Shown: one piece after another, positions 41,467-58,247 of the stretch
Layout of the letters: each line of letters starts with the position of its first letter
Position numbering within the stretch: position 1 is the first letter of the stretch
IMG/VR virus record: IMGVR_UViG_3300028591_000108
Location: 64,001 to 128,000 of that record
Strand: one strand, 5' to 3'
DNA: 64,000 bases
Origin: a virus
Lineage: Duplodnaviria > Caudoviricetes
The notes under the pieces: generated by a model
Seen by the model: only the letters and a program-made list of their open reading frames with translations
Databases searched by the model: none
What the model was told of the DNA's origin: nothing
Position numbers and translations under genes: made by a program

Positions 41467-41502
41467 TATGGCTTAGGACTGAGCCATAATCAGTCCTTTC
41501 GA

Positions 41503-41588: not shown

Positions 41589-41597
41589 TTAAACTAT

Positions 41598-41658: not shown

Positions 41659-41664
41659 GTATTT

Positions 41665-41735
41665 GCACCATTGGTGTAAAGGTAACACAGGTGCCTTCCA
41701 AGCATCTGATGCCCGTCCGATTCGGGTATGGTGCT
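41665..41735 (+). tRNA. trnG: tRNA-Gly(TCC)
   Basis: GCACCAT/ATGGTGC, GGTGC-CTTCCAA-GCATC. Confidence 0.85.
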
Positions 41736-42217
41736 CTTAGGTTCTTCTCTAGCCTATCGCGACAATAGAGAAGCGGTATGAAAGCGCCGTATAAGTACTT
41801 CAGGCACTGATACTATGTCTTAGCTTGCCTAGGAAAGTAAAGTATCCGACGAGTTATAACGTTCGTAAAAGGTGATATAACCGTACTAATGCTACGGATG
41901 TGCATTCACCAATCCTTGAGGTGCGAAGAGAGGCGTAAGGCGACACGACACATCGCCCGATGGCAGAGGAATAGCGAGCCTCGGCGCCATAATTTTCCGT
42001 ATCTTTGAGTGCTAGCGCCACTAGCTAATCGAATTTACGGAATTTTTTATTTGACTTTATCCCAAATTTCATGTATAATATATATGTAAGGAGGGTGAGA
42101 GAAGCTATGTTAGACGATTTTATTATGAATTTTTCTTATGATGAATTGGAAGATGAGTATTTGACTAGAGAAGAAATTTATGTTATAATTAATGAAGAAA
42201 GGGAAGGAGAATGAAGG

Positions 42218-42400
42218 ATGGAAAGAATTAGTTTCTGGTATGAGTTTGAAGACAAAGACGGCAAGGTTTCAAATAATGACATTCAGGTTAGTGTAGAGAA
42301 TGAGAATCGTATTCCGCGCGGTGAGGTATGCGAAGTTTTTACAAGATTTCTTGCATCCATAGGTTTTTCTACAGAAGGACTCTCTAAACTCTTTGATTAA
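42218..42400 (+). CDS. Hypothetical protein
   Basis: Promoter 42161 and RBS AAGGAG. Confidence 0.55.
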   Translation: MERISFWYEFEDKDGKVSNNDIQVSVENENRIPRGEVCEVFTRFLASIGFSTEGLSKLFD

Positions 42401-42565
42401 TTAATATTTGACTTCCAATAAAAATTATTGTATAATAATTATGTTGAATGAGGGAAGATGACAGTTTGGACTGGGAATGGGGAGCAAGTGCCAAGAGTTC
42501 CGCTAGAGATACCTCAATAAAAACGTTTAAGTGCAGAAATAAAATCCTAATAACTTGCATTATAA

Positions 42566-42638
42566 CCGCCACAAGCTCAATTGGTTGAGCACCCGGCTTA
42601 TATCCGGTTGGTTCAGGGTTCGAGCCCCTGGTGGCGGA
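42566..42638 (+). tRNA. trnI: tRNA-Ile(TAT)
   Basis: CCGCCAC/GTGGCGG, CCCGG-CTTATAT-CCGGT, canonical T arm. Confidence 0.8.
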
Positions 42639-43282
42639 CGCGGGCGGAGCACCTAGCCGGTGAAAGTATCAAAGGGTGCAAGGCGCAGTCAATCGTTAGT
42701 CGGCGCTCAAGTATAAGCAGGTAACGACGCGAAGAGGGAGGCGGTATTCCTAGACTCTCCACCCTGAGCAGTGTAAACGCTCAATAAAGGAATATTCGGC
42801 TAGGACGCGGATTGGGGTTTACGGTGATCCAACTGCGCGTAAACAAAAGGACAACCTACATGTACATGGCATCGGCGGATGTAAAACGAGACTCAGTGAC
42901 ACTGAGGATAATTACACGTAAGCCAAGCAGAGACTTGGTATGCCCGAAAACCGTAGGGAGGAGTGGATCTCCTCGCTGGCCGCAAGCTAGAATAGATGGT
43001 TCGATTCCATCTGCGGCGTACCCAAATTAGGTTGGGAGTAGGGCAAATTATATTAGATAAGATGGTTTTCTAAGAGTGTTAAATAACTGGCACTGGTATT
43101 AAGCAGTTGTGACTGTATCTCAGGGTCGTTCTGAGAAGAGGGACAGCCTATACATAGAGAACTGGTTCGAGTCCAGCGGGTCGCCAATATCGGTGACTAG
43201 GCAGAGGGTGCGCTTATGGATAAGGTTTTTGAAGCAAAAATTACCTCGGTTAGTTTGATAGCTACAAACTAACTTTTTATAT

Positions 43283-43355
43283 CGCACGGTCGTCTAAAGG
43301 CTTAGGACGGTTGGCTCATACCCAACAAATACAAGTTCGATTCTTGTCTGTGCCA
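43283..43355 (+). tRNA. trnM: tRNA-Met(CAT), initiator-like (C1:C72 mismatch)
   Basis: GTTGG-CTCATAC-CCAAC, unpaired first base pair. Confidence 0.8.
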
Positions 43356-43437
43356 CTTTGGTAAGGGAATCCCACCTGAGCCAACATAAGAGTGTTCGTA
43401 AGCCGTAAGCGAGGGCCGTAATACTCGCTTGCTACTT

Positions 43438-43509
43438 GGCCTTATCGTATAGAGGTTATTACATCCGGCTGTCTACCGGAAAACCAGAGTTCGATTCTCT
43501 GTAAGGTCG
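43438..43509 (+). tRNA. trnD: tRNA-Asp(GTC)
   Basis: GGCCTTA/TAAGGTC, TCCGG-CTGTCTA-CCGGA. Confidence 0.85.
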
Positions 43510-43512
43510 CTT

Positions 43513-43628
43513 TAGACGTATCAGCAATATTCTTCGCTTTGGGAGCCCGTCAAGTGTTGGTTCGATTCCAACCCTCCCAACTGATGGGAGGTCGCTCAAT
43601 TGGTAGAAGCGCGGTTATAGTACGTCTA
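43513..43628 (+). ncRNA. CAGCAA-stem RNA copy 2 with circularly permuted tRNA module (YrlA/Y-RNA-like)
   Basis: TAGACGTA/TACGTCTA stem encloses a T arm (GTTGG-TTCGATT-CCAAC), a closed acceptor hairpin CCTCCCA-ACTGA-TGGGAGG, then a D arm (GCTCAATTGGTAGAAGC). Confidence 0.7.
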
Positions 43629-43633
43629 GTTTT

Positions 43634-43707
43634 GGCCCGGTAGCTCAGTCCAGTAGAGCGTCTGACCGTTAATCAGAAAGTCCCAGGAGCAAAGCCTGGT
43701 CGGGCCG
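43634..43707 (+). tRNA. trnN: tRNA-Asn(GTT), atypical C33 and T loop
   Basis: GGCCCGG/TCGGGCC, TCTGA-CCGTTAA-TCAGA, T loop AGCAAAG. Confidence 0.75.
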
Positions 43708-43981
43708 CGCTACTTCAACATTCCTTTCACCTCTGTAGCATTTGGTGGAAAAATGTTAGTGCTTGGGCACCGCACTATAAAACGTGCCCACTAATATGCC
43801 AGCAATAGAAACTCTGGTCCAGTTCCACACCTTGTTGGCAGCGTAAAAAGCAATAATAGGAGCTTCTCACAAGGAGTTTGGTACTATTACTCCACGGATA
43901 CAGACCCGTGGCGGAAGGCATGACCTGAAATGAAAGGTGGCGCCCTAGCAGATGGCAAGTTCGCAATAATCTGCTATTTAT

Positions 43982-44058
43982 GCCCGATTGGTGTAATAGG
44001 TTAGCACAGCACCCTTTCAAGGTGCAGACGTGGAGTTCAAATCTCCCATTGGGTACCA
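43982..44058 (+). tRNA. trnE: tRNA-Glu(TTC)
   Basis: GCACC-CTTTCAA-GGTGC, encoded CCA. Confidence 0.8.
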
Positions 44059-44290
44059 TTCAACCACATAAAGCCTGAATTGACAGGATATGACTGGCCA
44101 GTTGAGGTCTGGCGGCAGACTGATGCGGACTTGTTGAAACATTGGTTTGTGTCTCGTGAGCGACGACAGCCGTGGTGAGGCAGCTATGCCAAAAGAGTGA
44201 TACTAAAATAGCATGTATACGGAATAGACAGACCGACCTGCTATAGCAGGAGGCACGAGGTATCCACCATATAGGCGAGGGCCTCGGTAA

Positions 44291-44351
44291 TAGGCACACG
44301 CAGCAAACCTATAAGGAACAACTTTCTATTAAAAAGTTTTAAATGTGCCTA
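44291..44351 (+). ncRNA. CAGCAA-stem small RNA, copy 3
   Basis: TAGGCACA-CGCAGCAA...TGTGCCTA. Confidence 0.55.
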
Positions 44352-44764
44352 GTATCTCGGTAGAAATGCCATTGCGAAGATAGCTGCCAGCAGCATCTAA
44401 CGTTCTACCATATGAAATGGCATCTTGCGCTTTCGACGCACAGTGGCAGTAGCAAGTAAAAAATAGACCACCTGGCCGTGCAATAGAGCAGTAAAGTGTA
44501 CGTTAAAAAATCGGATTCTGCTATCCTACGCTAAAGCGTAATCCGCTTGCCGTAGATAAGGCTTCTCTTGGCCGCGAGGATGTTCCTCGAAATCAAGACA
44601 TTTGGTCCCCGAGACAGTAAAACAGGCATTTCTAGAGTGCAAAGATAGTTCGTTACGGGGTTACATACTATCACAAATACGGGAGTGACGAGAAGTTACC
44701 TCACTTAATACTCTACTTGACCATAGACGTATGGCGAACAAATCCTGTATTTTCTTATCTTTAT

Positions 44765-44848
44765 CCGGGTGTAGCCGAACGGCCCAGGCAACAGACTTAA
44801 AATCTGTCGGAGCAAAGCTCCTTGTGGGTTCGAATCCCACCACCCGGA
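44765..44848 (+). tRNA. trnL: tRNA-Leu(TAA)
   Basis: CCGGGTG/CACCCGG, ACAGA-CTTAAAA-TCTGT, long variable arm. Confidence 0.9.
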
Positions 44849-44949
44849 CTTTCCATTAGGTGGAGCTTGGAACCTACCGCCTTTTGGCTGTGATGTATGG
44901 GACGCCATAATTGGCGCCCTTATTTTTAAACAACAAGGAGGAATGTACT

Positions 44950-45327
44950 ATGAAGAAACTTATCGCACTATTACTAACTCTTATGCTCTGTTTTCCTGTA
45001 TTCGCCTATGCTGATGGCGAAGACGACGTTGTTTCAGATACTCACACAGAACACGTTGAAGTTTATACTCCTGTCGAACGTGGCAATTATTCTGTTTCTA
45101 TTAGTTCTTCCCTTGATGGGCAGTCTAAGGTAAAAACAGGAACAAAAGTCACTCTAACTGCTCACCTATCTGGTTTCCGTGATGGAGTAGATACTTGGGA
45201 AATTACTTGGCAGGAGAATGATGGTTCAGGTTGGTCCGATGTTGGCTCCGGTAGCACCTATGACTTTAACATTGACGAAGATAATGTAAATCATAAATGG
45301 CGCGTCGTAGTCCATGTAAAATGGTAA
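44950..45327 (+). CDS. Secreted Ig-like small protein
   Basis: RBS AAGGAGG. Signal peptide MKKLIALLLTLMLCFPVFAYA, then G.KVTLTA...WQ.NDGSGW. Confidence 0.75.
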   Translation: MKKLIALLLTLMLCFPVFAYADGEDDVVSDTHTEHVEVYTPVERGNYSVSISSSLDGQSKVKTGTKVTLTAHLSGFRDGVDTWEITWQENDGSGWSDVGSGSTYDFNIDEDNVNHKWRVVVHVKW

Positions 45328-45342
45328 TTAAGGTGAAGGAAT

Positions 45343-46823
45343 ATGAAAAAACTTATAATACTGGTATTTATTTTACTAATACCCTTTCTTGCCTTATCTG
45401 AAGAAGGTGGAGAAGAAGATATTTATTCTAATGAATATACGCATAATGTTGAAATAATTTCATATTCCTATGATGATGGAGAAGTAGTTTTTTCTGCTGA
45501 TGTAGAATTAACTAATATGTTGGGTATTGTTACCATTCAACAAGATGTAAAAGTTTTTAATTATTTTTACGATAGAACTACACGCAAATATGCTGTACCG
45601 ATGGAAACAACGGTGAAAAATACAGGGATGGATGCGTATTTGCGCGTATATCTTAATGCATTTCGCACCGTTAAAGCAACTGGCGAAGACGAAGCTATTG
45701 ACTGGAGTCTTGTTGAAGTAGGACTATTAGATGAAAATGGTAATTTCCTAACAACTACAACTGATTATGTGTTATTGGGTGATTGCCTATATATGACACA
45801 GCCGACTCCATCTGGTCAATCTATTTATATTGATTACTATGGTTGGCTTAATAATTATCAACATTTGGCTACTAGTTCATATATTAAGACTTTACCTTCA
45901 AGTGAAGCAGTCCAAAAATATAACTTCTATCCAGACTTTACATCTAATGATCCTTGGAATAGTATTAATATTGAACAGCAAAATACTAATATTGATAATG
46001 CGGTCAGTAAGTTCGCATTAAATGTAACTATCGGTAATCAAGATGATATTAATGCTGACCCGCCAGAAGATACTGGATATAAACTGCCGGGAGATACTAC
46101 TTCATTTGAAGTGACTATTAAAATGCCAGCAACAGGATACTTATATCATTTTGTTATCATACGGGCCGCTGATGCTGCGCTGCGAGAAATCTTAACCGAT
46201 GAATTAACCGTATATGTTATTACTGATGATGGAGAAGAACAACAAATAAATTGGTATGGCAAAGTTGGAGAATATGTAAAAGATACAATTTTAAAGTTTA
46301 TTTATAAATTAAATATTCCAGAAACTTTAAATAATCCATTTGTAGGAGATCAGTTTCAAATTAAGGATGAGTATATAGTTGTAGCAACGCCATCCCCAAC
46401 TCCAACATCGACACCAACTCCTACTCCGACACTCACTCCTACACCAACTCCAAGCCCAACTCCTACATCAACTGCTACAGCAACACCTACACCAAGCCCA
46501 ACTCCAACTTCTATACCTACAGCAACTCCAACCGCTACTCCTACACCAACATTAACTCCAACTTCAACTCCAACTATAACGCCAACACCACTCCTACTTT
46601 GGCACCGACATTTACACCAGTTATTACTCCTGCGCCAACACCAATAGCGACGCCTATAATAACTAAGAAACCAAAGCCTACAGCGACGCCTCGGCCATCG
46701 AATATGCCGCAGCATACTCCTGGTCCACCAATGCGTACAATTCCATTATGGATATTGGAACTTTATAAAACACCATTAGGTTTAGATATAATGTATAATC
46801 AAGTTGGAGATTGTTTTGATTAA
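45343..46823 (+). CDS. Secreted protein with Pro-Thr repeat stalk, frameshifted near 46590
   Basis: Signal peptide and PT repeats from 46385 to ~46690. The PT register continues in another frame (track ORF 46599) and ends ...[19 protein letters not shown]. Confidence 0.65.
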
Positions 46824-46888
46824 TATTTGACTTATTATAAAAATTTTGTTATAATTTTATTGTACCGAGGGGATGAAACCCCTCATAT

Positions 46889-46962
46889 GCTTCCATAGCT
46901 CAATTGGCCAGAGCAATCGCTTCGTAAGCGATGGGTTGCAAGTTCAAGTCTTGCTGGAAGCT
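46889..46962 (+). tRNA. trnT: tRNA-Thr(CGT)
   Basis: GCTTCCA/TGGAAGC, ATCGC-TTCGTAA-GCGAT. Confidence 0.85.
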
Positions 46963-47230
46963 CTATACGCTTGGTCCGAGCCGTTCAAGAGTAAGCAAGG
47001 AACCCAGCTTACAGGATATTTCCCAACATACCATCATGCGTGGATGAAATAAGAAGAGATGGCGCCCGGTCCAACCGCAGGGCGTTATAAGCGAGCGGTT
47101 GGTAATAGTCCTAGGATCTCACAAGCAGGGACTATAATGAACGGCGTGAGCGCAAGATACTACGAGACAGATCCGGAAGGTAACAGTTCCGTTAAAGTGA
47201 AGAGCGATCGGCTTCATCTGAAAGTTTTAT

Positions 47231-47304
47231 GCCTCTCTAATCCAAATGGCAGAGATAGCACGCTAAGAACGTGTACAGTGTGAGTCCGAATCTCACGAGA
47301 GGTA
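47231..47304 (+). tRNA. trnL: tRNA-Leu(AAG), short variable loop
   Basis: GCCTCTC/GAGAGGT + A73, GCACG-CTAAGAA-CGTGT. Confidence 0.7.
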
Positions 47305-47422
47305 CGACTGTTGTTCAGCTGACAACCCAGTGGATGGATTTGACGCATCCCGTGCTACTACTGCGAGAGGGTCACGCTTAGGCTTTGCAAGCGGACCACG
47401 GCCCATGAAGGTAGCACATTAT

Positions 47423-47494
47423 CTCCGGCTAGTCTAAGGGACAGAACGTGTGGCTACGGACCATAAAATCGGCGTTCGAATCGTCGGCTGGAGA
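47423..47494 (+). tRNA. trnR: tRNA-Arg(ACG)
   Basis: CTCCGGC/GCTGGAG, TGTGG-CTACGGA-CCATA. Confidence 0.8.
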
Positions 47495-47536
47495 CTTCGC
47501 GCGAAAGCGCAAATTCATTTTGGAGGTACCTACTAT

Positions 47537-48076
47537 ATGAATGAACCAAGACTAAAGATTCTTCCCCCATGGACGATTCTAGTAAGGAAGCTAGAAGCCT
47601 TATTTGACGGTGATCCTCAGATTGCTTTCAATGTTGACTTTAGTGGAGAACATCCTTCTGTTGTTCTTTCCTGTAACAATGGAGATAAGGTTGCTGCACT
47701 AATGCAGATTCTACCTGAAGAAATTAACTTTGGCAATGTTACACTAAAGGTAATGGTAGATGGAACCCCAAGCAACCGCACCTTTAAGAGTAAGGTTGAA
47801 CTATTTGATACTGCTTTTTTCAAGAATCCTGCCTATGCGTATTCTGTTTGCCCTGCAGAAGAGGGATATCAGTGGATTGGCACTACTTATGTTGTATTCA
47901 ACAACTGTGTTGTACAGTTCGCAGCTGATAACCTAAATGATTGTCATGGAGTAATTAGTACTCTATATGAGACAATTGCTAGTGAACTTCTAACTGGGCC
48001 TGCAACTGAAGGCGTATTCTTCAATACTAATGTTGAGCGCGCAGGTCTTGGAATGCCGCTTGGCGAGTGGCCATAA
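47537..48076 (+). CDS. Conserved hypothetical protein
   Basis: RBS GGAGG before ATG 47537. LPPW...LF.GDP.I, YVVF...VVQF.ADNL.D..G..STLY. Confidence 0.75.
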   Translation: MNEPRLKILPPWTILVRKLEALFDGDPQIAFNVDFSGEHPSVVLSCNNGDKVAALMQILPEEINFGNVTLKVMVDGTPSNRTFKSKVELFDTAFFKNPAYAYSVCPAEEGYQWIGTTYVVFNNCVVQFAADNLNDCHGVISTLYETIASELLTGPATEGVFFNTNVERAGLGMPLGEWP

Positions 48077-48219
48077 CTTTCCTTGAGCGGAAATTTCCGC
48101 TCGTTATGCCCAGATGGTGAACCAGTGAACACCATCTGGTTTAAAAAAATTTAGTAAACTGAAAGAAAAAAAAATAGTTTGTTTACTTTAATAATACTCT
48201 TTATATGGAGGTGAGCGAT

Positions 48220-48826
48220 ATGAAAAAATGGGAAAAATTTTCGGATAAAGAATTAGAAATTATCGTTCAAAATAGCATTTCATATAGAGAGGTTGCACAA
48301 AAATTAGGATATGCAGAACGTAGTGGCGGTGGGTGTGATGCCGCGCGTGAAATGATTGAAGCTAAGGGTTTTAATATAGACCATTTTTTAGGTCAAGGAT
48401 GGAATAAAAGTAATTTTGATTATGAGCGTTTTCAAGCAGGTAAAGTAATTAAAAGTGCCGCTGCAATTCCAGCTTTAGTACAATTACGAGGACATAAATG
48501 TGAGAATTGTGGTGCAGAAACTTGGTTAGGAAATCCTATTCCATTAGAAGTACATCATATTAACGGTGACAGATTAAATAATACATTAGAGAACTTACAG
48601 CTGTTATGTCCTAATTGTCATGCTCTTACTGATAATTTTAAGGGTAAAAATAACACTGGTGACAAAAAAAGTAGAAGACGAAGTATTAGTAGAAGCACTT
48701 AAAAATAGTTCTAGTATTCGTCAAGCATTAATTTCTGTTGGACTAGCGGGTCGCGGCGGAAACTATGAACGTGCTCACGAATTAATTGATAAATATAATA
48801 TTACTAAATTTCAAAAAGGTGAGTAA
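48220..48826 (+). CDS. HNH homing endonuclease, frameshift at A7 run 48664-48670
   Basis: CENC...LEVHHINGDRLNN.LENLQLLCPNCH. The C-terminal domain (KNSSSIRQAL...GGNY) resembles the N-terminus (QNSISYREVA...GGG) but lies in the +1 frame. Confidence 0.8.
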
Positions 48827-48836
48827 TCACCTTTAT

Positions 48837-48912
48837 GCCAGAGTAGACAACCGGTGAAGTCCGCGCACTGAAAATGCGCTATTGATTGGTCCGACTCCAA
48901 TCTCTGGCACCA
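48837..48912 (+). tRNA. trnF: tRNA-Phe(GAA)
   Basis: GCCAGAG/CTCTGGC-ACCA, GCGCA-CTGAAAA-TGCGC. Confidence 0.85.
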
Positions 48913-49020
48913 TAATGGATTGGGAGGTGAGCCGGTAGATGAACTTCTCCATTGGCGATGAACCAAAATCAATCCAAAATCTCCTATTGGTTGGTGCGAC
49001 CCCAACTCTGGGCACCATAT

Positions 49021-49096
49021 GCCCGTTTAGCTCAGTTGGCAGAGCTTCCGGCTTACATCCGGACGGTCGGCAGTTCAAGTCTGTCAGCGGGTACCA
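49021..49096 (+). tRNA. trnV: tRNA-Val(TAC)
   Basis: TCCGG-CTTACAT-CCGGA, encoded CCA. Confidence 0.88.
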
Positions 49097-49204
49097 AATC
49101 CTATAATAGCCAGTGATAGTATGGACACTAGGGACGCCCTTTAAAGTTGTTCGCGGTAGTGAGAATAACCTTCGCCGTGGCGAAGTAAAAGAGCCACGGG
49201 ATAT

Positions 49205-49277
49205 GCGCCATTAGCTCAGCAGGCAGAGCACCGCACTTTTAATGCGGGTGTCCCGGTTTCGAGTACCGGATGGCACA
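49205..49277 (+). tRNA. trnK: tRNA-Lys(TTT)
   Basis: CCGCA-CTTTTAA-TGCGG. Confidence 0.82.
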
Positions 49278-49298
49278 CTAATTATAAAGGAGATTAAA

Positions 49299-49517
49299 AT
49301 GAGAATTATTTCTGGAGCTCATAGATTGCCTGGACATGCGTTTTGTGAATGTGGCACTGAATTTGAATTTGATTACGACGAGATTACAAAGGGCAATAAT
49401 AAACGACATGGTGCATATATTTATTGGTATAATTCTATTACTTGCCCAGTTTGCAAGAAAGAAATAGAGTTGCCAGATAATTTGGATAGTGTTTGTCCTT
49501 GGGTGCCAGATAATTGA
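49299..49517 (+). CDS. Small zinc-ribbon protein
   Basis: RBS AAGGAG. CECG...CPVC. Confidence 0.6.
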   Translation: MRIISGAHRLPGHAFCECGTEFEFDYDEITKGNNKRHGAYIYWYNSITCPVCKKEIELPDNLDSVCPWVPDN

Positions 49518-49572
49518 CATTAAATAAAATTTATAGTATAATTATTTCAGTAAGAAGGAAAGGAGTTCTATT

Positions 49573-49803
49573 ATGAGAAATCCAAATCGTATTGATAAGT
49601 TTTGTGATGAGCTTAAAGCGATTTGGCATCAAGTGCCAGATTGGCGCTTTGGGCAACTGATGGAAAATATGCTTAGTGCAAGACTACAAGCAGTATCAGA
49701 CCCTAATGGTTTCTTTTATACTGAAGATGAAGAATTGTTTGCTTTCTTTAAAAGTTATATGAATGAAATTATAAAAGAAGGTAGACAAAATAAAGATTGG
49801 TAA
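49573..49803 (+). CDS. DUF1040/YihD-like hypothetical protein
   Basis: MRNPNRI......W...PDWRFGQL...FY.ED. Confidence 0.65.
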   Translation: MRNPNRIDKFCDELKAIWHQVPDWRFGQLMENMLSARLQAVSDPNGFFYTEDEELFAFFKSYMNEIIKEGRQNKDW

Positions 49804-50013
49804 TTACATAATCCACCTGACATGGCTGTGACTACAAGGCGCGGAAAGGTGGCGGCAATCTCTTGCCCAAGTAAGTTGAAACGATATACACTCTTGGGAT
49901 GAAAAGCCTTAATGATGCGAAGATAGAGATATCACGTGAGTTTAGATACATGTGTGTGTAGTCGGTCTCCCTGTGGCCCGTTACGTTAGTAAGTTGGCAC
50001 AGGGGAAGCTTCT

Positions 50014-50159
50014 AGGAGTGTAAGATAACGGTAGTCGCGCGGTCTCCGGGGCGATAGTGTAAAGAACACGCTAGGAAAGCAAGGGCCTAGTAATTGAAGG
50101 GCAGTACTGAGGCGCTCCACCAAAAACCGCTCGTGTTGGTTCGAATCCAGCCGCTCCTG
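50014..50159 (+). tRNA. trnW: tRNA-Trp(CCA) interrupted by a 75-nt tRNA-like insert (50048-50122) between positions 35/36
   Basis: Exon 1 AGGAGTG...GCGGT-CTCC and exon 2 AAA-ACCGC...GTTGG-TTCGAAT-CCAGC-CGCTCCT-G join to give the loop CTCCAAA. Confidence 0.8.
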
Positions 50160-50163
50160 CTTA

Positions 50164-50227
50164 AAGACTCGTCAGCAACATTTTTCAAGCATCTGACTTT
50201 TAATCTGACTAGCTATAAACGAGTCTT
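50164..50227 (+). ncRNA. CAGCAA-stem RNA copy 4 with tRNA-Lys anticodon-arm-like cargo
   Basis: AAGACTCG-TCAGCAA...AGCATCTGACTTTTAATC...CGAGTCTT. Confidence 0.6.
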
Positions 50228-50234
50228 GTTTTAT

Positions 50235-50308
50235 GCCTTTCTATCCCAATTGGAAGAGGAAACCGACTCAAAATCGGCTCAGTTTGGGTTCAAATCCCAA
50301 GTTAGGCA
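50235..50308 (+). tRNA. trnL: tRNA-Leu(CAA), short variable loop, two acceptor mismatches
   Basis: ACCGA-CTCAAAA-TCGGC, T arm TTGGG-TTCAAAT-CCCAA. Confidence 0.65.
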
Positions 50309-50525
50309 CTCGCGCCATATAACTTAGGCGCATGGATTACATGTCATCCTTACTATTATACAATTTATTTAGACGTGCTTGAGGGTTCCCACCCGCTGTT
50401 GAGAAGAAGCAGAAAGGGATTATGGTGAGACTCGATAATACCGTAAATACTTTCGAGAAGTATAGGACAATGTTTGAAAAGCCGGATTTCTGTAATTGGG
50501 GCGATAACACCATCTAGTCCTATAT

Positions 50526-50599
50526 GCCCGAGTAACAGAATTGGCATATGTACGCGGTTCAGAGCCGTGGTTTTGTGGGTTCGACTCCCACCTTGGGCA
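50526..50599 (+). tRNA. trnL: tRNA-Leu(CAG), short variable loop
   Basis: GCCCGAG/CTTGGGC, CGCGG-TTCAGAG-CCGTG. Confidence 0.75.
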
Positions 50600-50908
50600 C
50601 TTATGTTTATCTTAGATAGGCCCAGTATACTAAAGCGATATAAAGTTCATGGGTTTCGCGTAGAGAAGATAAACATCGCGCCAAAGATACAAATTAAAAT
50701 AAATATGGCGCAATGAGTGCTGCTCCCACTCATATTACTAAAATATTATTGAAACATTACAAATGGAGCAATTTAATTAAAGATGTGCGATCGGTAGCAC
50801 AAGAAATAATTCCGAAATAATAGCACGGGTTAGAAGGGCCGGAATTCTATAATTGGGGCCTAAACACCATCCTGAAGTGCTGTTATGCCCACTACTTTGG
50901 GCAATTAT

Positions 50909-50979
50909 GGGGATATAGTATAACAGTAAAACAGTAGCTTTGCAAGCTTCAGACCGGGGAGCGTCACCCCGTATCTCCA
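50909..50979 (+). tRNA. trnA: tRNA-Ala(TGC)
   Basis: GGGGATA/TATCTCC with G3:U70, loop TTTGCAA, atypical T loop. Confidence 0.75.
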
Positions 50980-50989
50980 CATTATTATA

Positions 50990-51060
50990 GGCTCCGAAAT
51001 CTGGCGGCCGGATACTTGTCTGCAAAACTTGTTTAGTCAGTTCGACTCTGACCGGAGCCT
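50990..51060 (+). tRNA. trnC: tRNA-Cys(GCA)
   Basis: GGCTCCG/CGGAGCC + U73, loop CTGCAAA, weak anticodon stem. Confidence 0.7.
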
Positions 51061-51078
51061 CAATTTGGAGGATTATTT

Positions 51079-51381
51079 ATGATAGGCAATTATAAAATAA
51101 TAACATTATGTGGGAGCACCCGCTTCAAGGAGGATTTTGAGCGTGTTAACAGAGAACTTACTTTAGCGGGCAATATTGTCATCAGTGTTGGTTGTTTTGG
51201 CCATTCTGGTGATACTTTTACAGAGGAACAAAAAGTAATGCTTGATGATATTCATAAGCGCAAGATTGATATGGCCGATGAAATCTTTGTAATTAATAAA
51301 GATAAATATATTGGCGCAAGTACTCGTAGTGAAATTGAATATGCGATTTTACATGATAAGCCAGTGAGGTATATGGAATGA
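51079..51381 (+). CDS. Nucleoside 2-deoxyribosyltransferase-like/DUF4406-like protein
   Basis: ITLCGSTRF...HKRKIDMADEIFVIN...YIG.ST..EIEYA. Confidence 0.65.
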   Translation: MIGNYKIITLCGSTRFKEDFERVNRELTLAGNIVISVGCFGHSGDTFTEEQKVMLDDIHKRKIDMADEIFVINKDKYIGASTRSEIEYAILHDKPVRYME

Positions 51382-51626
51382 GAAAAGGCCGCGGTATAGA
51401 TCATTATTGGGAAGTAAGAAAATATTTAGGCGATATAGCTTTATATGCTCATTGCAAATGCGGATTTGAATATGCTTGTTCTTCCAATAAAAGAAAACCA
51501 GATGGAAGTGTTAGTTTTGAGCAAGAAATTACTAAGCTATACTTATATTGTCCTTATTGTGGAGCACGAAAAAAATGGTATAATGATATACCCAGAAAAA
51601 TAGATAGACTTCAATATGGCGGGTGA
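51378..51626 (+). CDS. Zinc-ribbon hypothetical protein
   Basis: CKCG...YCPYCG. Confidence 0.6.
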   Translation: MRKGRGIDHYWEVRKYLGDIALYAHCKCGFEYACSSNKRKPDGSVSFEQEITKLYLYCPYCGARKKWYNDIPRKIDRLQYGG

Positions 51627-51700
51627 ACCCGGCAAGGCGTGGGACCTGTCTCGAAAACAGTGGGAGCGTAAAGCTTATGGTTCGAGTCCATCGCCCGTCG
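51618..51700 (+). tRNA. trnS: tRNA-Ser(CGA)
   Basis: GGCGGGT/GCCCGTC + G73, CTGT-CTCGAAA-ACAG, long variable arm. Confidence 0.75.
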
Positions 51701-51706
51701 TCATAT

Positions 51707-51792
51707 GTCAAGAGAACTCAGGCGGCCCTGAGCATCCGTTGGAAGCGGATTGGTCTTGTAAAAGGGATGGAGGTCGGCACTTCCTCTTGGCG
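51707..51792 (+). tRNA. trnS: tRNA-Ser(GGA)
   Basis: GTCAAGA/TCTTGGC, ATCCG-TTGGAAG-CGGAT, long variable arm, atypical T loop. Confidence 0.7.
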
Positions 51793-51818
51793 TATTATAT
51801 CAGATGGAGTTGATGTAT

Positions 51819-52058
51819 ATGAGAAATCGTGCAGAAAAACGTCATAATGATTGGAAGAAAGCAATTCGGAAACGGAAGATTGTTGAAGAAGTCTACCAGT
51901 GGCCCGAAGGATGGTATGATAACTTACATCAATATAGTAAGAATAAAGTACATTGTTCTTGCCATGTATGTCGCGGCTGGACTAAACATGGTGAAAATAA
52001 TATTTCAGATAGACGAAAACTTGAAGAAATGAAAGAACAAATACTTGACAATGAATAA
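51819..52058 (+). CDS. Basic hypothetical protein
   Basis: R.EKR....KKAIRK...SKNKVHCSC.VC. Confidence 0.6.
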   Translation: MRNRAEKRHNDWKKAIRKRKIVEEVYQWPEGWYDNLHQYSKNKVHCSCHVCRGWTKHGENNISDRRKLEEMKEQILDNE

Positions 52059-52179
52059 AATTTCTGATATAATAATAATGTAAAAAGGAGATAATAGTAG
52101 AAAGAAGAGGCAACTAAAAAGTTTGTTGCAAAAGTAACATGGTAATCATCTCCTTCTTGTGCGGCGAAAGCCGCGTTTA

Positions 52180-52309
52180 TCCACGGTGGCGGAATAGGTA
52201 GACGCTAGAAAAGCTCGGCGCTCGACAGGACAGAAGCGTAGGGTTGCCACCCTGTCGGTGGATGCACGTATGTGTTACCCATATAAGGTGCAAATCCTTA
52301 TCCGTGGAA
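52180..52309 (+). ncRNA. tRNA-like RNA with ~75-nt expanded anticodon domain
   Basis: Acceptor TCCACGG/CCGTGGA, Leu-like D arm GCGGAATAGGTAGACGC, T arm TAAGG-TGCAAAT-CCTTA, no 7-nt anticodon loop. Confidence 0.6.
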
Positions 52310-52315
52310 TTATAA

Positions 52316-52388
52316 CGAGAATGTGGTGTAATCTGGTAACACGGGTGCTTCGGGAGCACCAGTTGCGGTTCAAATCCGACATTTTCGA
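52316..52388 (+). tRNA. trnP: tRNA-Pro(CGG)
   Basis: GGTGC-TTCGGGA-GCACC, acceptor CGAGAATG/CATTTTCG, irregular T stem. Confidence 0.7.
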
Positions 52389-52393
52389 CACAA

Positions 52394-52501
52394 TAGACGG
52401 TTACAGCAATTATTGCATACAAGGTGTCATTGGTTCAAATCCAATCTTCTCCATTGGAGAAGTAGCTCAATTGGTAGAGCAATTGATTATGAAACTGTCT
52501 A
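52394..52501 (+). ncRNA. CAGCAA-stem RNA copy 5 with circularly permuted tRNA module (YrlA/Y-RNA-like)
   Basis: TAGACGGTT/AACTGTCTA stem, T arm ATTGG-TTCAAAT-CCAAT, closed acceptor CTTCTCC-ATT-GGAGAAG, D arm GCTC-AATTGGTA-GAGC. Confidence 0.72.
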
Positions 52502-52508
52502 GTATTTA

Positions 52509-52601
52509 TAGGCCATTACAGCAAATTATATATAAATGGTGAAAGAAATGTTTGAGAAACATAACTGAGAAGGTTCGATCCCTTCAAATTTAAATGGCCT
52601 A
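52509..52601 (+). ncRNA. CAGCAA-stem RNA copy 6 with T-arm cargo
   Basis: TAGGCCATT-ACAGCAA...GAAGG-TTCGATC-CCTTC...AATGGCCTA. Confidence 0.62.
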
Positions 52602-52723
52602 GTTTTAGTTGAATATTCGCTCCGTTCTGGAGCTAATAGATTGCCGCGTTGGATTGCTCCTATTTGAAAGAGGCAGAGTAGTATCTGCAACTCTTCCGCG
52701 GCGTTTTTCTTATTGGAGGAATT

Positions 52724-52909
52724 ATGGAAGATAAATTAAAAGGAATTTATGGCTGTTTAAAAATAATGGATATGATGCTTTGTAATTATACTTATGATCC
52801 ATCTCATGGCGTGATACCATTTAAATCTACACAAGAAATGGCAAAATATTTCAGAGCTATGCTACACGCAATTTTACCAGAGGAATATAGATATTATAAA
52901 GGAGAATGA
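52724..52909 (+). CDS. Hypothetical protein
   Basis: RBS GGAGG, TAG-free. Confidence 0.55.
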   Translation: MEDKLKGIYGCLKIMDMMLCNYTYDPSHGVIPFKSTQEMAKYFRAMLHAILPEEYRYYKGE

Positions 52910-52994
52910 CACTATGGCGGAATGGTAACGCACCGACCTGCTAAGTCGAGGTTGCTTGTAAAAGGGTATGCACGTTCGAGCCGTGCTAGTGTCG
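52908..52994 (+). tRNA. trnS: tRNA-Ser(GCT)
   Basis: GACACTA/TAGTGTC, CGAC-CTGCTAA-GTCG, long variable arm. Confidence 0.82.
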
Positions 52995-52999
52995 CTTAT

Positions 53000-53153
53000 A
53001 GTCCCTTAGCGTAATGGTAGCGCAGTGGACTTTCGGCTCATAGTTTATTTGGCAAAATACTTTTAAACTAGTTGAGAGATATCAAGAGAAATAGGTTCGA
53101 TCCCTATTGAGCCGACGACTCCACACGTGTTGGTCCGATTCCAACAGGGACTG
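53000..53153 (+). tRNA. trnQ: tRNA-Gln(TTG) interrupted by an 83-nt tRNA-shaped insert (53034-53116) between positions 35/36
   Basis: Exon 1 AGTCCCT...GTGGA-CTTT and exon 2 GAC-TCCAC...GTTGG-TCCGATT-CCAAC-AGGGACT-G join to give the loop CTTTGAC. Confidence 0.82.
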
Positions 53154-53171
53154 CTTTTAGGAGGGATTATT

Positions 53172-53495
53172 ATGGCTAAAGATGAAACTCCAATTTATGA
53201 AATCTATGTAATGAGTGAACCTTGGCATTTGGATTCTGATAAGTTTCCAAGCTGTGGTCATCGAGAACGAGTAGGTTTTTACTACGAAAAAGATACTGCT
53301 ATTCGCGCAGTAGAAGAAAATTGGTGTGACCTTCAAGACTATTATGCTCAAGCCGCAGAGGTTTGTAAAGTAGAACCTGGTCTTTATTCCGTTCCCTCTC
53401 GGCGTGAATATTGGTACTTCCTATGGAACCAACAAGAAAAGAAATTTGAACTCGCGCGAAAGCCTAAGCTTGGATTATGGGAGGCAGGGTATTGA
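53172..53495 (+). CDS. Hypothetical protein
   Basis: RBS GGAGG before ATG 53172. The track start lies inside tRNA-Gln. Confidence 0.7.
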   Translation: MAKDETPIYEIYVMSEPWHLDSDKFPSCGHRERVGFYYEKDTAIRAVEENWCDLQDYYAQAAEVCKVEPGLYSVPSRREYWYFLWNQQEKKFELARKPKLGLWEAGY

Positions 53496-53935
53496 AACTT
53501 TATACATCTTATTGGGCGCAAGTGCGTAATTTTCCAAAAAACCTAGTCGGCCTTTCAACAACTATATGGAACCCACGCTGGAGAAAAATGGGTAAAGATG
53601 CGCGTGGAGTAATATGTGTTGATTGCCCTCCTTTTAAACCAGGACATAGCTGCGATGGTTTATGTAATGGGAAGTGTAATCCAAAACATCCAGAAGATTG
53701 CTTATTCCTCCAACACTATAAAGCTCAACTAGATAAAATTAATCCAATTACAATTCAAAATAGTTTAGGGAAACTTGCTGCACAAATTTGTCATGATGAA
53801 CATCTACCAGATGTAGATTTTGCTTTTTTATTTTATGAAACACCAACTAATCCTTGTAGTGAGCGAGTAATGGTACAACGTTGGTTCCAAGAACATGGAT
53901 ATGAAATTAAAGAATGGCAGAAACTAAAATCTTAA
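53492..53935 (+). CDS. DUF488-like protein
   Basis: LYTSYWA...PRW...Y..QL......FLFYETP...CSER..V..WF. Confidence 0.6.
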   Translation: MKLYTSYWAQVRNFPKNLVGLSTTIWNPRWRKMGKDARGVICVDCPPFKPGHSCDGLCNGKCNPKHPEDCLFLQHYKAQLDKINPITIQNSLGKLAAQICHDEHLPDVDFAFLFYETPTNPCSERVMVQRWFQEHGYEIKEWQKLKS

Positions 53936-54143
53936 AGCAAGCCTTAGCTTTTAATAAAAGTTTTATGCGTGCTTGTTATCATCCTAAAGCTCGTGTGCGA
54001 AAAAAGAATTATAAGCGCGCGAAACATATTATGAATTGGCAATGTAAAATTTATGGACATATGCTAGTTCCACAAAAATGGTTAAATATTTGACTTTATC
54101 GAAAATTTCTGGTATAATATAAATACAGAAAGGAGAGATAGAG

Positions 54144-55506: not shown

Positions 55507-56322
55507 ATGAATTTTGATATTTATACTGAAGAAATGAGTAAATCGGTGTGGGATAAAGCTTTCTTTATGGATAAAATTATCGGTGCGAAGCTTGTTATTG
55601 ACTTTGGATGCGCTGACGGCGCTATGATTCGTATGCTTGCGCCGTTGTTTCCCAACACCACTTTCTATGGTTATGACATTAATGATGATTTGATTATTGA
55701 GGCTTGGCGCAAACTTGAATCTCCTGCGGATAAAAATACTTTCTTCTTTCATAAGGAGAGAAGCTTTGCCGATCGACATGATAGTTTTGAAGATATGATT
55801 GCTATGGCAATGCAGTATTACAAGCCTGATGAAATTTGTATTAACTTTTCTTCTGTGCTACATGAAGTTTTTTCTTCTAGCCCTAGTGGTAAAGAAACTA
55901 TTCGACGCCTTGTTAAAGAACTGCAGCCGAAGTACATTACTATTCGAGATATGTATTGGCACGCGGTTTCTAGCGTAAATGTACTACGTTGCTCAGAAGA
56001 TAAGATCCGAGCGCAGGTAGAAGAAAAGTATCTCAATGATTATGAAGCTACGTTTGATTATATACACTCTCCCCAGTCTATTACTCATTTCCTTATGAAG
56101 TACCAGTGGAAAGACAATGGATGGGAAGATGAAATGAAAGAAAACTATTTTTCCTATACTATTGAGGATTTTCTCAATGCTATGTGCCGATGGCAGTATA
56201 CTACTGTATTTGAATCTCATTATCAGCTTCCTTATTTGACAGAAAAATGGAAGAATGAATATGATTTCTTTGTGCCAGAAGCGCATACTCATGCACAGTT
56301 TATTCTTAGGAGGAATGATTAA
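55507..56322 (+). CDS. Class I SAM-dependent methyltransferase
   Basis: VIDFGCADG motif I, GYDIN, NFSSVLHEV, ITIRD. Confidence 0.8.
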   Translation: MNFDIYTEEMSKSVWDKAFFMDKIIGAKLVIDFGCADGAMIRMLAPLFPNTTFYGYDINDDLIIEAWRKLESPADKNTFFFHKERSFADRHDSFEDMIAMAMQYYKPDEICINFSSVLHEVFSSSPSGKETIRRLVKELQPKYITIRDMYWHAVSSVNVLRCSEDKIRAQVEEKYLNDYEATFDYIHSPQSITHFLMKYQWKDNGWEDEMKENYFSYTIEDFLNAMCRWQYTTVFESHYQLPYLTEKWKNEYDFFVPEAHTHAQFILRRND

Positions 56323-56849
56323 TGGCGATTTTATATATTCTTTGCGGCCCGAGCGCTTGTGGTAAAAGCACTTGGCGCGACACTTTTATTGCAGAGCATA
56401 GCGATAAGGATATTCGATATGTTTCTCGTGACGAAATTCGTTTTTCTATGCTTGAAGAAGGCGAAGATTATTTTGCTCATGAGAAAGAAGTTTTCAAGAA
56501 GTTTGTTAGCACCTTGGCGCAGACTCTTGTTGACGGATTTGACGTAATTGCAGACGCTACTCATCTTAATGAGTTTTCGCGCAAGAAGCTTACCAACGCA
56601 CTTGACCGTATTGGCGTAGATTATGAAATTAAGTATGTAGTATTCTATACCTTGTACTCCGAATGCTGTGAGCGGGATGCAATGCGCGAAGGCATGGCAT
56701 ACGTAGGTCCTGATGTTATTCGTGGAATGTTCCGCTCCTTTAAGGCGCCGACTCTTGAAGAAGATCGTCGCGCCACAGAAATTATTGAAGTAGGAAATAA
56801 GAAAGGAGATTTTTCCTTTCTGATAGACCCCTACTGGAAGGAGATGTAA
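56322..56849 (+). CDS. Polynucleotide kinase-like P-loop kinase (AAA_33)
   Basis: LCGPSACGKSTW, VSRDEIR, ADATHL..R and C.ERD..R, as in T4 Pnk-type kinase domains. Confidence 0.82.
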   Translation: MAILYILCGPSACGKSTWRDTFIAEHSDKDIRYVSRDEIRFSMLEEGEDYFAHEKEVFKKFVSTLAQTLVDGFDVIADATHLNEFSRKKLTNALDRIGVDYEIKYVVFYTLYSECCERDAMREGMAYVGPDVIRGMFRSFKAPTLEEDRRATEIIEVGNKKGDFSFLIDPYWKEM

Positions 56850-56850
56850 G

Positions 56851-57417
56851 ATGGGTGATATTTGGCTCTCGTCAGATTTACATCTGATGCATAATAAGCC
56901 ATTCTTATACGAACCTCGTGGCTTTACTTCTACCGAGGAAATGTGTGAAGCTATTGTAGAACGTTGGAACTCAGTTGTAAGAGACGAAGATCTTGTTTAT
57001 AATCTAGGCGATATTGCTCTTAGCGATGTTGATGCAGCTATTCCTTATCTACAGCGGCTTAAGGGACACCAAATATGGATTCTCGGGAACCACGATACTT
57101 TAGGAAAGATAGAGAAAATCTTGCCTGCATGTCCCAAAATCCAGCTTCTTGGCACTGAAAGGACTTCTTATGCCACTGTCATTAAGAGCGGAAAATGGAG
57201 CTTTTATCTATCGCATTATCCCACTTTGACTGGAAATAACGAAACTTGGCGTAAAGTAGCTAATCTTTGTGGCCATAGTCATACGCAAGACAAATGGGTT
57301 GACTGGGACAAAATGTGCTATCATGTAGAGATGGATGCCCATGACTGCTATCCAGTAAATTTGGAACATATTAAAGATCAAATTCGAAAGAAATATTTGA
57401 CTTCTCTTGAAAATTGA
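56851..57417 (+). CDS. Calcineurin-like metallophosphoesterase
   Basis: SDLH, LGD, GNHD, SHYP, GHSH motifs. Confidence 0.88.
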   Translation: MGDIWLSSDLHLMHNKPFLYEPRGFTSTEEMCEAIVERWNSVVRDEDLVYNLGDIALSDVDAAIPYLQRLKGHQIWILGNHDTLGKIEKILPACPKIQLLGTERTSYATVIKSGKWSFYLSHYPTLTGNNETWRKVANLCGHSHTQDKWVDWDKMCYHVEMDAHDCYPVNLEHIKDQIRKKYLTSLEN

Positions 57418-57556
57418 GTTATAATAATTATGTTAAAAGATAATAAATGTTTGATTGGATCACCATGCAAACATTGTGATCCTTCAGTATGTTTATTTTA
57501 TAAACACTCTTACAGTCGTGACAACGACCAAGATGAAAAGGAGAATAAAAAGGAAA

Positions 57557-57919
57557 ATGAAAGATTGCGTATGTATGCACCCCGGACATGTGGAATATCT
57601 GGGACTAGGAGAACTAGAGACTGTTGAAATTCCAATAAATTATCATTATGAACGGCATCATTGTGGTGGCGGTTATACATGCGATGATTTTAAAAAAGAG
57701 CTTATTCGTCCTAAAGTATTCCTACTTACTGGGTTTCACCCTGGACGCTTATTTAAAGTTATACACGGTCTTTCTGAACGAATTCAAGTTTGTCCATTTT
57801 GTGGTCGTAATACAGCTGAGTGGCATGAAGAGCATGATGTAGATGAATATCCGCAAGCTTTTATTGATTTATATGAACGTCCCTCAAATGTGATGGAAGG
57901 TATAGAAGGATATTTATAA
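57557..57919 (+). CDS. Hypothetical protein (Cys/His motifs)
   Basis: Likely start at ATG 57557. CPFCG motif. Confidence 0.55.
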   Translation: MKDCVCMHPGHVEYLGLGELETVEIPINYHYERHHCGGGYTCDDFKKELIRPKVFLLTGFHPGRLFKVIHGLSERIQVCPFCGRNTAEWHEEHDVDEYPQAFIDLYERPSNVMEGIEGYL

Positions 57920-57963
57920 TTCTACAATCTAGTTTTAAACCAAGATGAAAAAGGAGAAAGAAA

Positions 57964-58218
57964 ATGATCTATCGCCGGAAGTCAGAGACAGTTGAAGCAA
58001 TCATGTTTGACGGCTCTAATTTAGAGCAAATTCGGCAGTTCCTGAAAGATTATTTCAAATATGGCCATATTATGGAAGATGGACATTTATTTTTAATGCT
58101 AAATAGTAATAATGCGCTTTATAGCGCACAGGTTTATGATTATATTGTAGTAGATAAAATGCATGGATTTACTATGAATAAGAAAGCCTTTGAAAATACT
58201 TATATCCCGCGGTCTTGA
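57964..58218 (+). CDS. Hypothetical phage protein
   Basis: YRRK...VEAIMFDG.N...DYIV......F...Y pattern. Confidence 0.65.
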   Translation: MIYRRKSETVEAIMFDGSNLEQIRQFLKDYFKYGHIMEDGHLFLMLNSNNALYSAQVYDYIVVDKMHGFTMNKKAFENTYIPRS

Positions 58219-58247
58219 TAAAGACTAAGATGAAAAGGAGAAAAAAA

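Follow-up and report, generated by a model that had tools for sequence, protein, structure and literature searches.

A tRNA-Trp gene split inside its anticodon by a CCA-ended tRNA-like RNA gene in a TAG-recoded phage

In a TAG-recoded phage, a tRNA-Trp(CCA) gene is interrupted within its anticodon by a 75-nt RNA of tRNA-like shape, which begins exactly at its own G1 and ends exactly at its own CCA. The 146 bp locus is best read as two genes in one transcript, the tRNA-Trp and the 75-nt RNA, both in the same orientation. The insert is not junk. It is a member of a conserved, covarying family of CCA-ended tRNA-like RNAs, here called family A. We propose that RNase P and a 3′ endonuclease would release the inner RNA, and that an Rnl5-type ligase of the phage would reseal the tRNA-Trp; judged from sequence comparison, these enzymatic steps have an even chance of being correct. 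The family membership of the insert, the free-standing copies of the family and the three insertion positions within one anticodon are new here. The occurrence of an identical insert in diverged alleles and the tmRNA-like top half of the insert are also new.

The stretch of DNA analysed, hereafter the window, comprises 64,000 nt (bases 64001-128000) of an IMG/VR phage record of 141.9 kb, which is 78% complete according to CheckV. When TAG was read as a sense codon, the long open frames summed to 53.3 kb, approximately double the 25.8 kb otherwise obtained, and a frame of 3087 aa opened. The use of TAG was limited to the virion genes (1-41466). A tRNA array of ~12 kb (41500-53150) comes next, and then standard-code early genes. 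In the array, 18 tRNA genes were called by ARAGORN and several more were added by Rfam. CCA is encoded in only three of the 18 ordinary ARAGORN-called genes, and 11 of them carry C74. The tRNAs at 43634-43707, 50909-50979 and 50990-51060 (Asn, Ala(UGC) and Cys) were seen by Rfam and missed by default ARAGORN; the Asn and Ala tRNAs have the non-canonical T loops AGCAAAG and AGCGUCA. A further tRNA(CUA), with a long variable region, is found at 41503-41588, and its anticodon arm is one base (C35 to U) off that of the spliced tRNA-Trp.

Other features of the array and its surroundings were recorded on the way. Just before the array, at 40394-40456, there is an above-threshold match to the cow-rumen-4 RNA motif (59.6 bits), which fits a rumen origin. 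Sub-threshold matches to YrlA, a bacterial Y-RNA-like RNA, lie inside the array at 52394-52504 and 43555-43610 (34.9 and 22.8 bits, with a gathering score of 69). A vWA-domain protein is encoded 6 kb downstream of them, and together these may represent a Ro/Y-RNA-like module. The ~210 nt directly upstream of the split tRNA-Trp (49800-50013) are G+C-rich and 91% identical in the related locus L078. This stretch had no table-11 ORF of at least 120 aa and no Rfam match, and it may be another structured RNA. Several ORFs in the array had no recognisable family, and a search with a 438-aa array protein gave no relatives. The locus was without a match in the INPHARED phage records.

The borders of the insert were defined with the help of uninterrupted relatives. 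Related loci were gathered via the neighboring vWA-domain protein (58215-59741), which gave 8 and then 19 phage loci. L075 and L076 carry an uninterrupted tRNA-Trp(CCA). Its bases 1-34 are 97% identical to exon 1 of the window and its next 37 bases are 89% identical to exon 2, with nothing between the two matches. Because the intact gene matches both halves back to back, the insert is exactly 50048-50122 (Table 1). The initial annotation, which had described a tRNA-Trp(CCA) split by this segment between positions 35 and 36, was thus confirmed. The insert is absent from four orthologous tRNA-Trp genes and present in L078. Its removal restores the loop CUCC/AAA, with the anticodon CCA.

Table 1 Split tRNA-Trp locus, second nested gene and RNA-repair-like genes. 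Positions refer to the window, except for the RNA ligase, which lies beyond its end.
Feature	Position	Strand	Basis
tRNA-Trp(CCA), exon 1: acceptor 5′ strand, D arm, anticodon stem 5′ strand, loop bases 32-35	50014-50047	+	ARAGORN and intact relatives
Insert: 75-nt CCA-ended tRNA-like RNA (family A)	50048-50122	+	Comparison, covariation, model R1
tRNA-Trp, exon 2: loop bases 36-38, anticodon stem 3′ strand, variable loop, T arm, acceptor 3′ strand, G73	50123-50159	+	
Second nested gene: tRNA-Gln(UUG), split at 35/36	53000-53154 (exons 53000-53033 and 53117-53154)	+	ARAGORN
Inner 83-nt tRNA(CUA), amber suppressor with long variable arm, ending A73-C74	53034-53116	+	Rfam tRNA, 43 bits
P-loop kinase (AAA_33), candidate for RNA 5′-end healing	56322-56849	+	Pfam, 1.3e-14
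Calcineurin-like phosphoesterase, candidate for 3′-end healing	56851-57417	+	Pfam Metallophos, 5e-6
RlaP-family nucleotidyltransferase ('RNA repair pathway DNA polymerase beta family')	59824-60585	+	Pfam PF10127, 1.8e-6
RNA ligase, Rnl5-type, ATP-dependent	G000:C1:128143-129375 (143 nt past the window end)		PHA02142 OB domain and PF09414

The joined exons were called tRNA-Trp(CCA) by ARAGORN, and a reading of the sequence places the outer body in the bacterial tRNA-Trp type (A1:U72, G5:C68, A9, G73). When introns were allowed, ARAGORN reported a tRNA at 50014-50160 with a 75-nt insert placed 2 nt further left and called it Leu(CAA), because the junction shifted by 2 nt also yields a 7-nt loop. 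We rejected the leucine identity, since the body lacks a long variable arm and shares homology with tRNA-Trp. When viral contigs were searched with nothing but the exon pattern, 73 matches came up, all due to chance, and at none of them was there a tRNA.

In the inner RNA, bases 50048-50054 pair with 50112-50118 to form the acceptor stem, which includes G3:U70, and the tail is ACCA (50119-50122). Three arms are enclosed: a D-like arm (50057-50069), an arm with a 10-nt loop (50071-50090) and a T-like arm with the loop GGCAGUA (50095-50111). The sequence agrees with the earlier description of an insert running from GGGGCG to CGCUCC-ACCA, with G3:U70, A73 and an encoded CCA at the junction. Covariation among seven homologues supports all four helices. 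In this comparison 83% of the cells were paired, versus 37-46% in slid controls, and ten pairs were altered on both sides; the observed value was reached in none of 500 shuffles. The D arm, the 10-nt-loop arm and the weak T arm, previously proposed from the window alone, are each backed by this analysis. The single-sequence fold of the insert was not significant (z = -1.6), so that the support for the structure comes from the comparison with relatives. Model R1 scored the window insert with 82.8 bits. Searched alone against Rfam, the insert gave no match at E<=10, and it was not called by ARAGORN. Together with the 10-nt loop and the T loop GGCAGUA, this led us to reject a standard tRNA as the identity of the inner RNA.

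Homologues were collected with two search patterns. The first combined the acceptor stem and the T loop and found six viral loci. The second, built from the internal 10-nt loop and the T loop and therefore blind to the acceptor stem, added eight viral loci and 19 metagenome contigs. After collapse, family A had 20 distinct members of 47-75 nt, the short ones retaining only the acceptor stem, the T arm and CCA. Most are free-standing (14/20), mainly in phage tRNA arrays, and six are nested, a tally in which the 47-nt copy within tRNA-Ile(UAU) of L102 was counted as nested. The free-standing copies are mostly preceded by an ..AU/G leader, and many share a syntenic place before a 52-aa ORF. Nested copies were found in tRNA-Trp (twice), in an amber-suppressor tRNA(CUA), in tRNA-Lys(UUU) (three times) and in tRNA-Ile(UAU). 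They occupy the sites 34/35, 35/36 and 36/37, and all three sites occur in tRNA-Lys(UUU). The initial annotation had named homologous inserts at random tRNA positions as an argument against a mechanism; they were found only inside anticodons or as free-standing genes, never elsewhere in tRNAs. Bacterial genomes gave 20 pattern matches, of which 16 were unstructured chance matches and four were alphaproteobacterial tmRNA genes, so the RNA was not found as a host gene.

The arrangement is not limited to tRNA-Trp. In the same array, a tRNA-Gln(UUG) gene is interrupted by a tRNA(CUA) (Table 1), and an intact tRNA-Gln in L077 matches both of its halves contiguously. The inserts in the Trp and Gln genes had been described as unrelated, and indeed no significant similarity between them was detected, with 172 of 500 shuffles scoring as high. 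The splitting of a tRNA-Gln by a tRNA(CUA) in a TAG-recoded phage would couple suppressor release and tRNA-Gln survival in one transcript. According to the tRNA calls on the record, the phage has no Trp or Gln tRNA other than these split ones. A second insert family, family B, is unrelated to family A. Its acceptor starts with GUC and ends with GGC-NCCA, its T loop is canonical, and its nested copies are found in relatives, within Gln, Val, Thr and Glu tRNAs.

A structural scan was run for 7-bp stems closing on NCCA, the removal of which restores a 5-bp stem and a 7-nt loop and leaves joined exons accepted by ARAGORN. It recovered ten distinct nested cases, and with two more from other searches the total is at least 12. 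The restored loops of the ten scan cases have U33 and a purine at 37, and they are read as proper tRNA by ARAGORN. Nested inserts are always in sense orientation and extend from base 1 of their own acceptor stem to NCCA. In all 12 cases, their removal restores a 7-nt loop with an anticodon that fits the outer body. The recurrence of the design in at least 12 independent cases across related phages is in line with the earlier suggestion of a mechanism, not a one-off accident. That suggestion had invoked a shared structure and position. The shared structure holds, and the fixed position does not, as insertion varies between three sites of the anticodon.

Related phages showed further variants. 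The complete 239.6-kb genome of a TAG-recoded relative (G006) carries a tRNA(CUA) split by a family A insert (L096 1988-2062, corresponding to G006:C1:201925-201999). An intact 70-nt tRNA(CUA) is found ~90 nt upstream of it (G006:C1:201768-201837), and a tRNA-Gln of the same genome is split by an 85-nt family B insert (199127-199283). The split suppressor looks like an orthologue of the tRNA(CUA) at 41503-41588 of the window. In L080 (1255-1415), a tRNA-His(GUG) has an 86-nt insert after position 36, with a closing stem, a T-like arm and a CAAU tail replacing NCCA. This insert may be a decayed or a divergent member of the class.

Comparison of alleles gave signs of both mobility and selection. 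Between the window and L078, the flanks are 75-94% identical, the insert is 97% identical (2/75 positions differ) and the exons are 80% identical (14/71 differ), with 7 of 34 positions changed in exon 1. In L145, the insert is identical to that of the window at 75/75 positions and exon 2 has one change; exon 1 differs at 10 of 34 positions. An identical insert next to a diverged exon 1 indicates that the insert was passed between alleles that had diverged, much as homing introns are. Such exchange between phages may be driven by an HNH endonuclease, a candidate whose free-standing gene (48205-48702) lies within the tRNA array, 1.3 kb upstream of the split tRNA-Trp. Among the exon changes between the window and L078, the pairs 11:24, 49:65 and 6:67 were altered on both sides. 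Four further changes affect one base only and leave a standard or wobble pair in place, and one mismatch arose, as read from the alignment. The cloverleaf of the outer tRNA is thus preserved despite the exon differences, and the tRNA may be functional after excision.

The end-processing signals of the inner RNA, namely a 7-bp acceptor stacked on the T arm, G1 and NCCA, led to a proposal in three steps. RNase P would cut 5′ of the inner G1 and leave exon 1 with a 3′-OH. An endonuclease, either RNase Z/BN-like or a phage enzyme, would cut right after the CCA and leave exon 2 with a 5′-phosphate. The two halves would be held together by the outer acceptor and anticodon stems and sealed by the Rnl5-type ligase. 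The products would be a 71-nt tRNA-Trp with the loop CUCCAAA and a free 75-nt RNA. Such a tRNA would be 'born broken', to be mended by the phage with its own tRNA-repair enzymes. A CCA-bearing minihelix is a minimal substrate of RNase P, and the 3′-OH of an RNase P product and the 5′-phosphate of an RNase Z-type product are the ends joined by the Rnl5 ligase class.

Several observations support this proposal. Family A is free-standing in tRNA arrays and must be matured there like any tRNA. Since the nested copies show the same ends as the free copies, the same maturation would cut the outer tRNA inside the anticodon. The boundaries of the insert are set by the inner RNA, and its removal restores the tRNA. 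All nested copies are in sense orientation, as RNA-level removal requires. The outer tRNA stays intact, and the split genes have no other Trp or Gln tRNA beside them in the phage. Lastly, an RNA ligase gene adjoins the window and repair-like genes lie downstream of the array.

The nearest solved relative of the ligase is the Naegleria RNA ligase 5cot (2e-31), and the protein matches TIGR02306, the DRB0094 family. It is encoded by an early, standard-code gene. The ligase was present in 7/7 reasonably complete records with nested tRNAs, which are related to each other, and absent from one complete genome with only a free-standing copy. It was present also in G001, where no nested tRNA was seen, and in G005, which has a free-standing copy only, so the association between ligase and nested tRNAs does not discriminate. 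The genes for the kinase, the phosphoesterase and RlaP follow the array 3-10 kb further downstream. The kinase is weakly similar to the bacterial Pnkp kinase domain (NCBIfam bacter_Pnkp, 1.2e-5, below the curated cut-off). The order of the RNA-repair-like genes at 56322-61600 is AAA_33 kinase, metallophosphoesterase, DUF2828/DUF7788/vWA protein, RlaP and DUF5662; past the window end come the Rnl5-type ligase and then another phosphoesterase. The 78%-complete phage record had no archaeal splicing endonuclease (PF01974), RtcB, T4 Rnl1, reverse transcriptase, CCA-adding enzyme or SmpB.

The 3′ cut is a weak point of the proposal. An encoded CCA is inhibitory to RNase Z in many bacteria, where exonucleases trim the precursors that bear CCA, and such trimming could not yield an intact exon 2. 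A phage-encoded endonuclease for this cut was not found in the 78%-complete record. The Gln insert ends with A73-C74 and not with CCA, so that the 3′ cut would occur at no single fixed distance from the acceptor stem, although C74 is also carried by 11 of the 18 ordinary ARAGORN-called genes of this phage. The sealing step meets a difficulty as well: Rnl5-type ligases are known for the sealing of nicks in duplexes, not of breaks in anticodon loops, which counts against the proposal. No splint RNA complementary to the exon junction was detected in the window, where the only match was the antisense of the suppressor tRNA's near-identical anticodon arm. Furthermore, the introns of Lak megaphages have a leader of ~30 nt before their inner tRNA-like part, and these cannot be explained by RNase P and a ligase alone. 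The near-identical inserts in diverged exons also count against the proposal, as they could reflect a recent invasion that left little time for decay of the outer gene.

Such an invasion is part of a competing explanation, in which the inner RNA is the sole product and the tRNA-Trp halves are discarded, the outer tRNA being either an expression scaffold or a recently invaded dead gene. We regard this as unlikely, although a number of results fit it. The insert is far better conserved than the exons (75/75 positions in L145, 73/75 in L078) and stands alone as a gene in most phages. Host tRNA-Trp is available in any case, and in G006 an intact tRNA(CUA) adjoins the split one. It is harder to reconcile with the restoration of a fitting 7-nt anticodon loop in 12/12 cases, with outer stems that keep their pairing via two-sided changes, and with split genes that are the phage's only ones for Trp and Gln. 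Moreover, a scaffold would need no insert inside the anticodon triplet.

A dedicated phage or host endonuclease could also recognise the site where the outer anticodon stem meets the inner helix, with the neighboring kinase and phosphoesterase healing the ends before ligation, in the manner of healing-and-sealing tRNA repair. This would give a role to the P-loop kinase and the two metallophosphoesterases beside the ligase, which would be superfluous for RNase P and RNase Z products. Several array ORFs have no recognisable family, and Lak-type introns with 5′ leaders need more than RNase P. We nevertheless consider such an enzyme improbable, to a similar degree as a discarded outer tRNA. The boundaries follow the mature ends of the inner RNA and not a fixed place in the outer tRNA (34/35, 35/36, 36/37), and no candidate nuclease, RtcB, T4 Rnl1 or splicing endonuclease was found in the 78%-complete genome. 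As for the healing enzymes, they could just as well serve to counter anticodon nucleases of the host.

Much less probable is a small selfish DNA element, a miniature transposon or homing insert, without RNA-level processing and with a dead tRNA gene. The presence of the insert varies among close relatives, near-identical inserts sit in diverged alleles, exon 2 was apparently co-converted in L145, the HNH endonuclease gene is nearby, and the acceptor stem doubles as a 7-bp terminal inverted repeat. However, the sequence around the insert showed no target-site duplication, every copy is sense-oriented, the ends are G1 and NCCA, the free-standing copies are syntenic in tRNA arrays, and no reverse transcriptase was found. 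Owing to the G:U pairs, the fold is specific to one strand, an indication of RNA and an argument against a selfish DNA element. An insert can be mobile and still be removed at the RNA level, as group I introns are. Known intron types, whether self-splicing group I or archaeal bulge-helix-bulge, occur in anticodon loops but were excluded here: the 75-nt insert has no ~200-nt ribozyme core and no Rfam match at E<=10, no intron or ribozyme match was found across the array (41000-54000), both splice sites lie in one internal loop with no two 3-nt bulges around a 4-bp helix (sequence reading), the PF01974 splicing endonuclease is absent from the phage, and the outer tRNA-Trp is bacterial in identity.

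Under excision by end-maturation, the inner RNA would be a second product. It may accept alanine and may mimic the tRNA-like domain (TLD) of tmRNA or tRNA-Ala. G3:U70 was kept in 17 of the 20 distinct family A members, a tally in which much of the sample had been retrieved with patterns demanding G3:U70; of the other three, two carry G3-C70 and one A3-U70. Either A or G serves as the discriminator, and several members have G73, not A73. An alanine identity of the insert is therefore plausible but weaker than initially stated, being frequent in family A and not universal.

By sequence reading, the acceptor of the insert (GGGGC/GCUCC-ACCA) has the G3:U70 stem and ACCA end of tmRNA and TLD-only RNAs, and the T loop GGCAGUA resembles the alphaproteobacterial GGCgGUA (RF01849). 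The four properly folding bacterial matches are alphaproteobacterial two-piece tmRNA genes, and both their T loop GGCgGUA and their CUCCACCA end match family A. One family A member, L095, has the tmRNA 5′ motif and matched RF04321 (23.4 bits) and RF01849 (10.6 bits), in both cases below threshold. In contrast, the window insert is without the tmRNA D-loop analogue (GGAUCGAC-type 5′ motif), which is replaced by a stem-loop D arm and a second arm, and it has no Rfam match. The comparison with tmRNA made previously is thus favored by the motif and partial model matches of L095, and disfavored by the window insert, which matches no Rfam model. The T loop was rejected as a tmRNA-specific mark, because it is present also in a tRNA-Cys-like gene of related phages. 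In L106, this gene is on the reverse strand at 2435-2510, with the T loop GGCAGCA. With no Rfam match, a non-specific T loop and no SmpB gene found in the 78%-complete phage record, both alanine charging and tmRNA mimicry are no more than plausible. A TLD-only tmRNA is encoded by mycobacteriophage DS6A (Hudson, Lau & Williams 2014, PMC4131195), and TLD-only RNA was reported to be able to inhibit tmRNA, perhaps by titrating SmpB (PMC4131195). The insert is likewise without a tag-coding region.

Protein-dependent tRNA splicing is regarded as an archaeal and eukaryotic trait, and the tRNA introns of bacteria and phages are taken to be group I introns that splice themselves. In 2019, introns of phage tRNAs that are too short to be ribozymes were reported as 'enigmatic', and they have stayed unexplained. 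They were described in Lak megaphages, with the comment that one 'may itself encode a tRNA' (Devoto et al. 2019, PMC6784885, Fig. 4, Table S6), and the 'enigmatic' remark was repeated for 262 alternatively coded jumbo phages (Wei et al. 2026, PMC13037316). In the literature on phage tRNA introns, we found no paper proposing a mechanism. The phages studied here resemble Lak phages in several respects. Both are TAG-recoded gut or rumen phages with anticodon-loop inserts that have a tRNA-like acceptor and T arm, are near-identical across samples and are variable in presence, and both have a phage RNA ligase of the Rnl2/Rnl5 family. As with Lak introns, the window insert is better conserved (97-100%) than the exons (~80% versus L078). 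There are also differences. Lak introns have a leader hairpin of ~30 nt, and their 3′ ends lie 2-3 nt beyond the inner acceptor strand, whereas the window insert has no 5′ leader hairpin, starts exactly with G1 and ends exactly with CCA. The window insert furthermore belongs to a family with free-standing copies and lies within the anticodon triplet itself, and the lineage consists of 140-240 kb rumen phages, different from Lak.

Repair of anticodon loops is known from phage T4, in which Pnk and Rnl1 reseal the loops of host tRNA-Lys cut by the host nuclease PrrC. The phage studied here has a ligase, with weakly assigned candidates for kinase and phosphatase partners, that could serve tRNAs broken in the anticodon loop. 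The break in T4 is made by a host defence nuclease, whereas here it would be programmed into the phage's own gene, and the ligase is of the Rnl5 type, not Rnl1. Group I introns are found in the anticodon loops of bacterial and phage tRNAs, and archaeal tRNA-Trp introns encode a C/D box guide RNA. The insert is like these in its anticodon-loop location and variable presence, and the archaeal intron is itself a functional small RNA. It differs in having neither a ribozyme core nor a bulge-helix-bulge, and in its proposed excision by tRNA end-maturation enzymes.

Taken further, the locus may exemplify a third route of tRNA splicing, next to self-splicing and to the route via an endonuclease and a ligase, with a tRNA-shaped intron, excision by the cell's end-maturation enzymes and rejoining by a phage RNA ligase. 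This route might time tRNA supply and the switch to TAG, and its alanine-type RNA might blunt ribosome rescue. We put this wider view forward tentatively and, on balance, doubt it. Since a tRNA(CUA) is split in relatives and is itself an insert here, the route could time both tRNA supply and the TAG-recoded late switch. If this is true, the alanine-type RNA, once released, may dampen the rescue of ribosomes at in-frame TAG codons. The locus and its relatives give the 'enigmatic' introns a testable anatomy: a small-RNA gene with its own mature ends, repeated invasion of anticodons and an accompanying RNA ligase. If confirmed, this would be a new splicing route and a natural role for phage ligases of the Rnl5/Rnl2 type, and recoded phages might gain a further level at which genetic-code switching is controlled.
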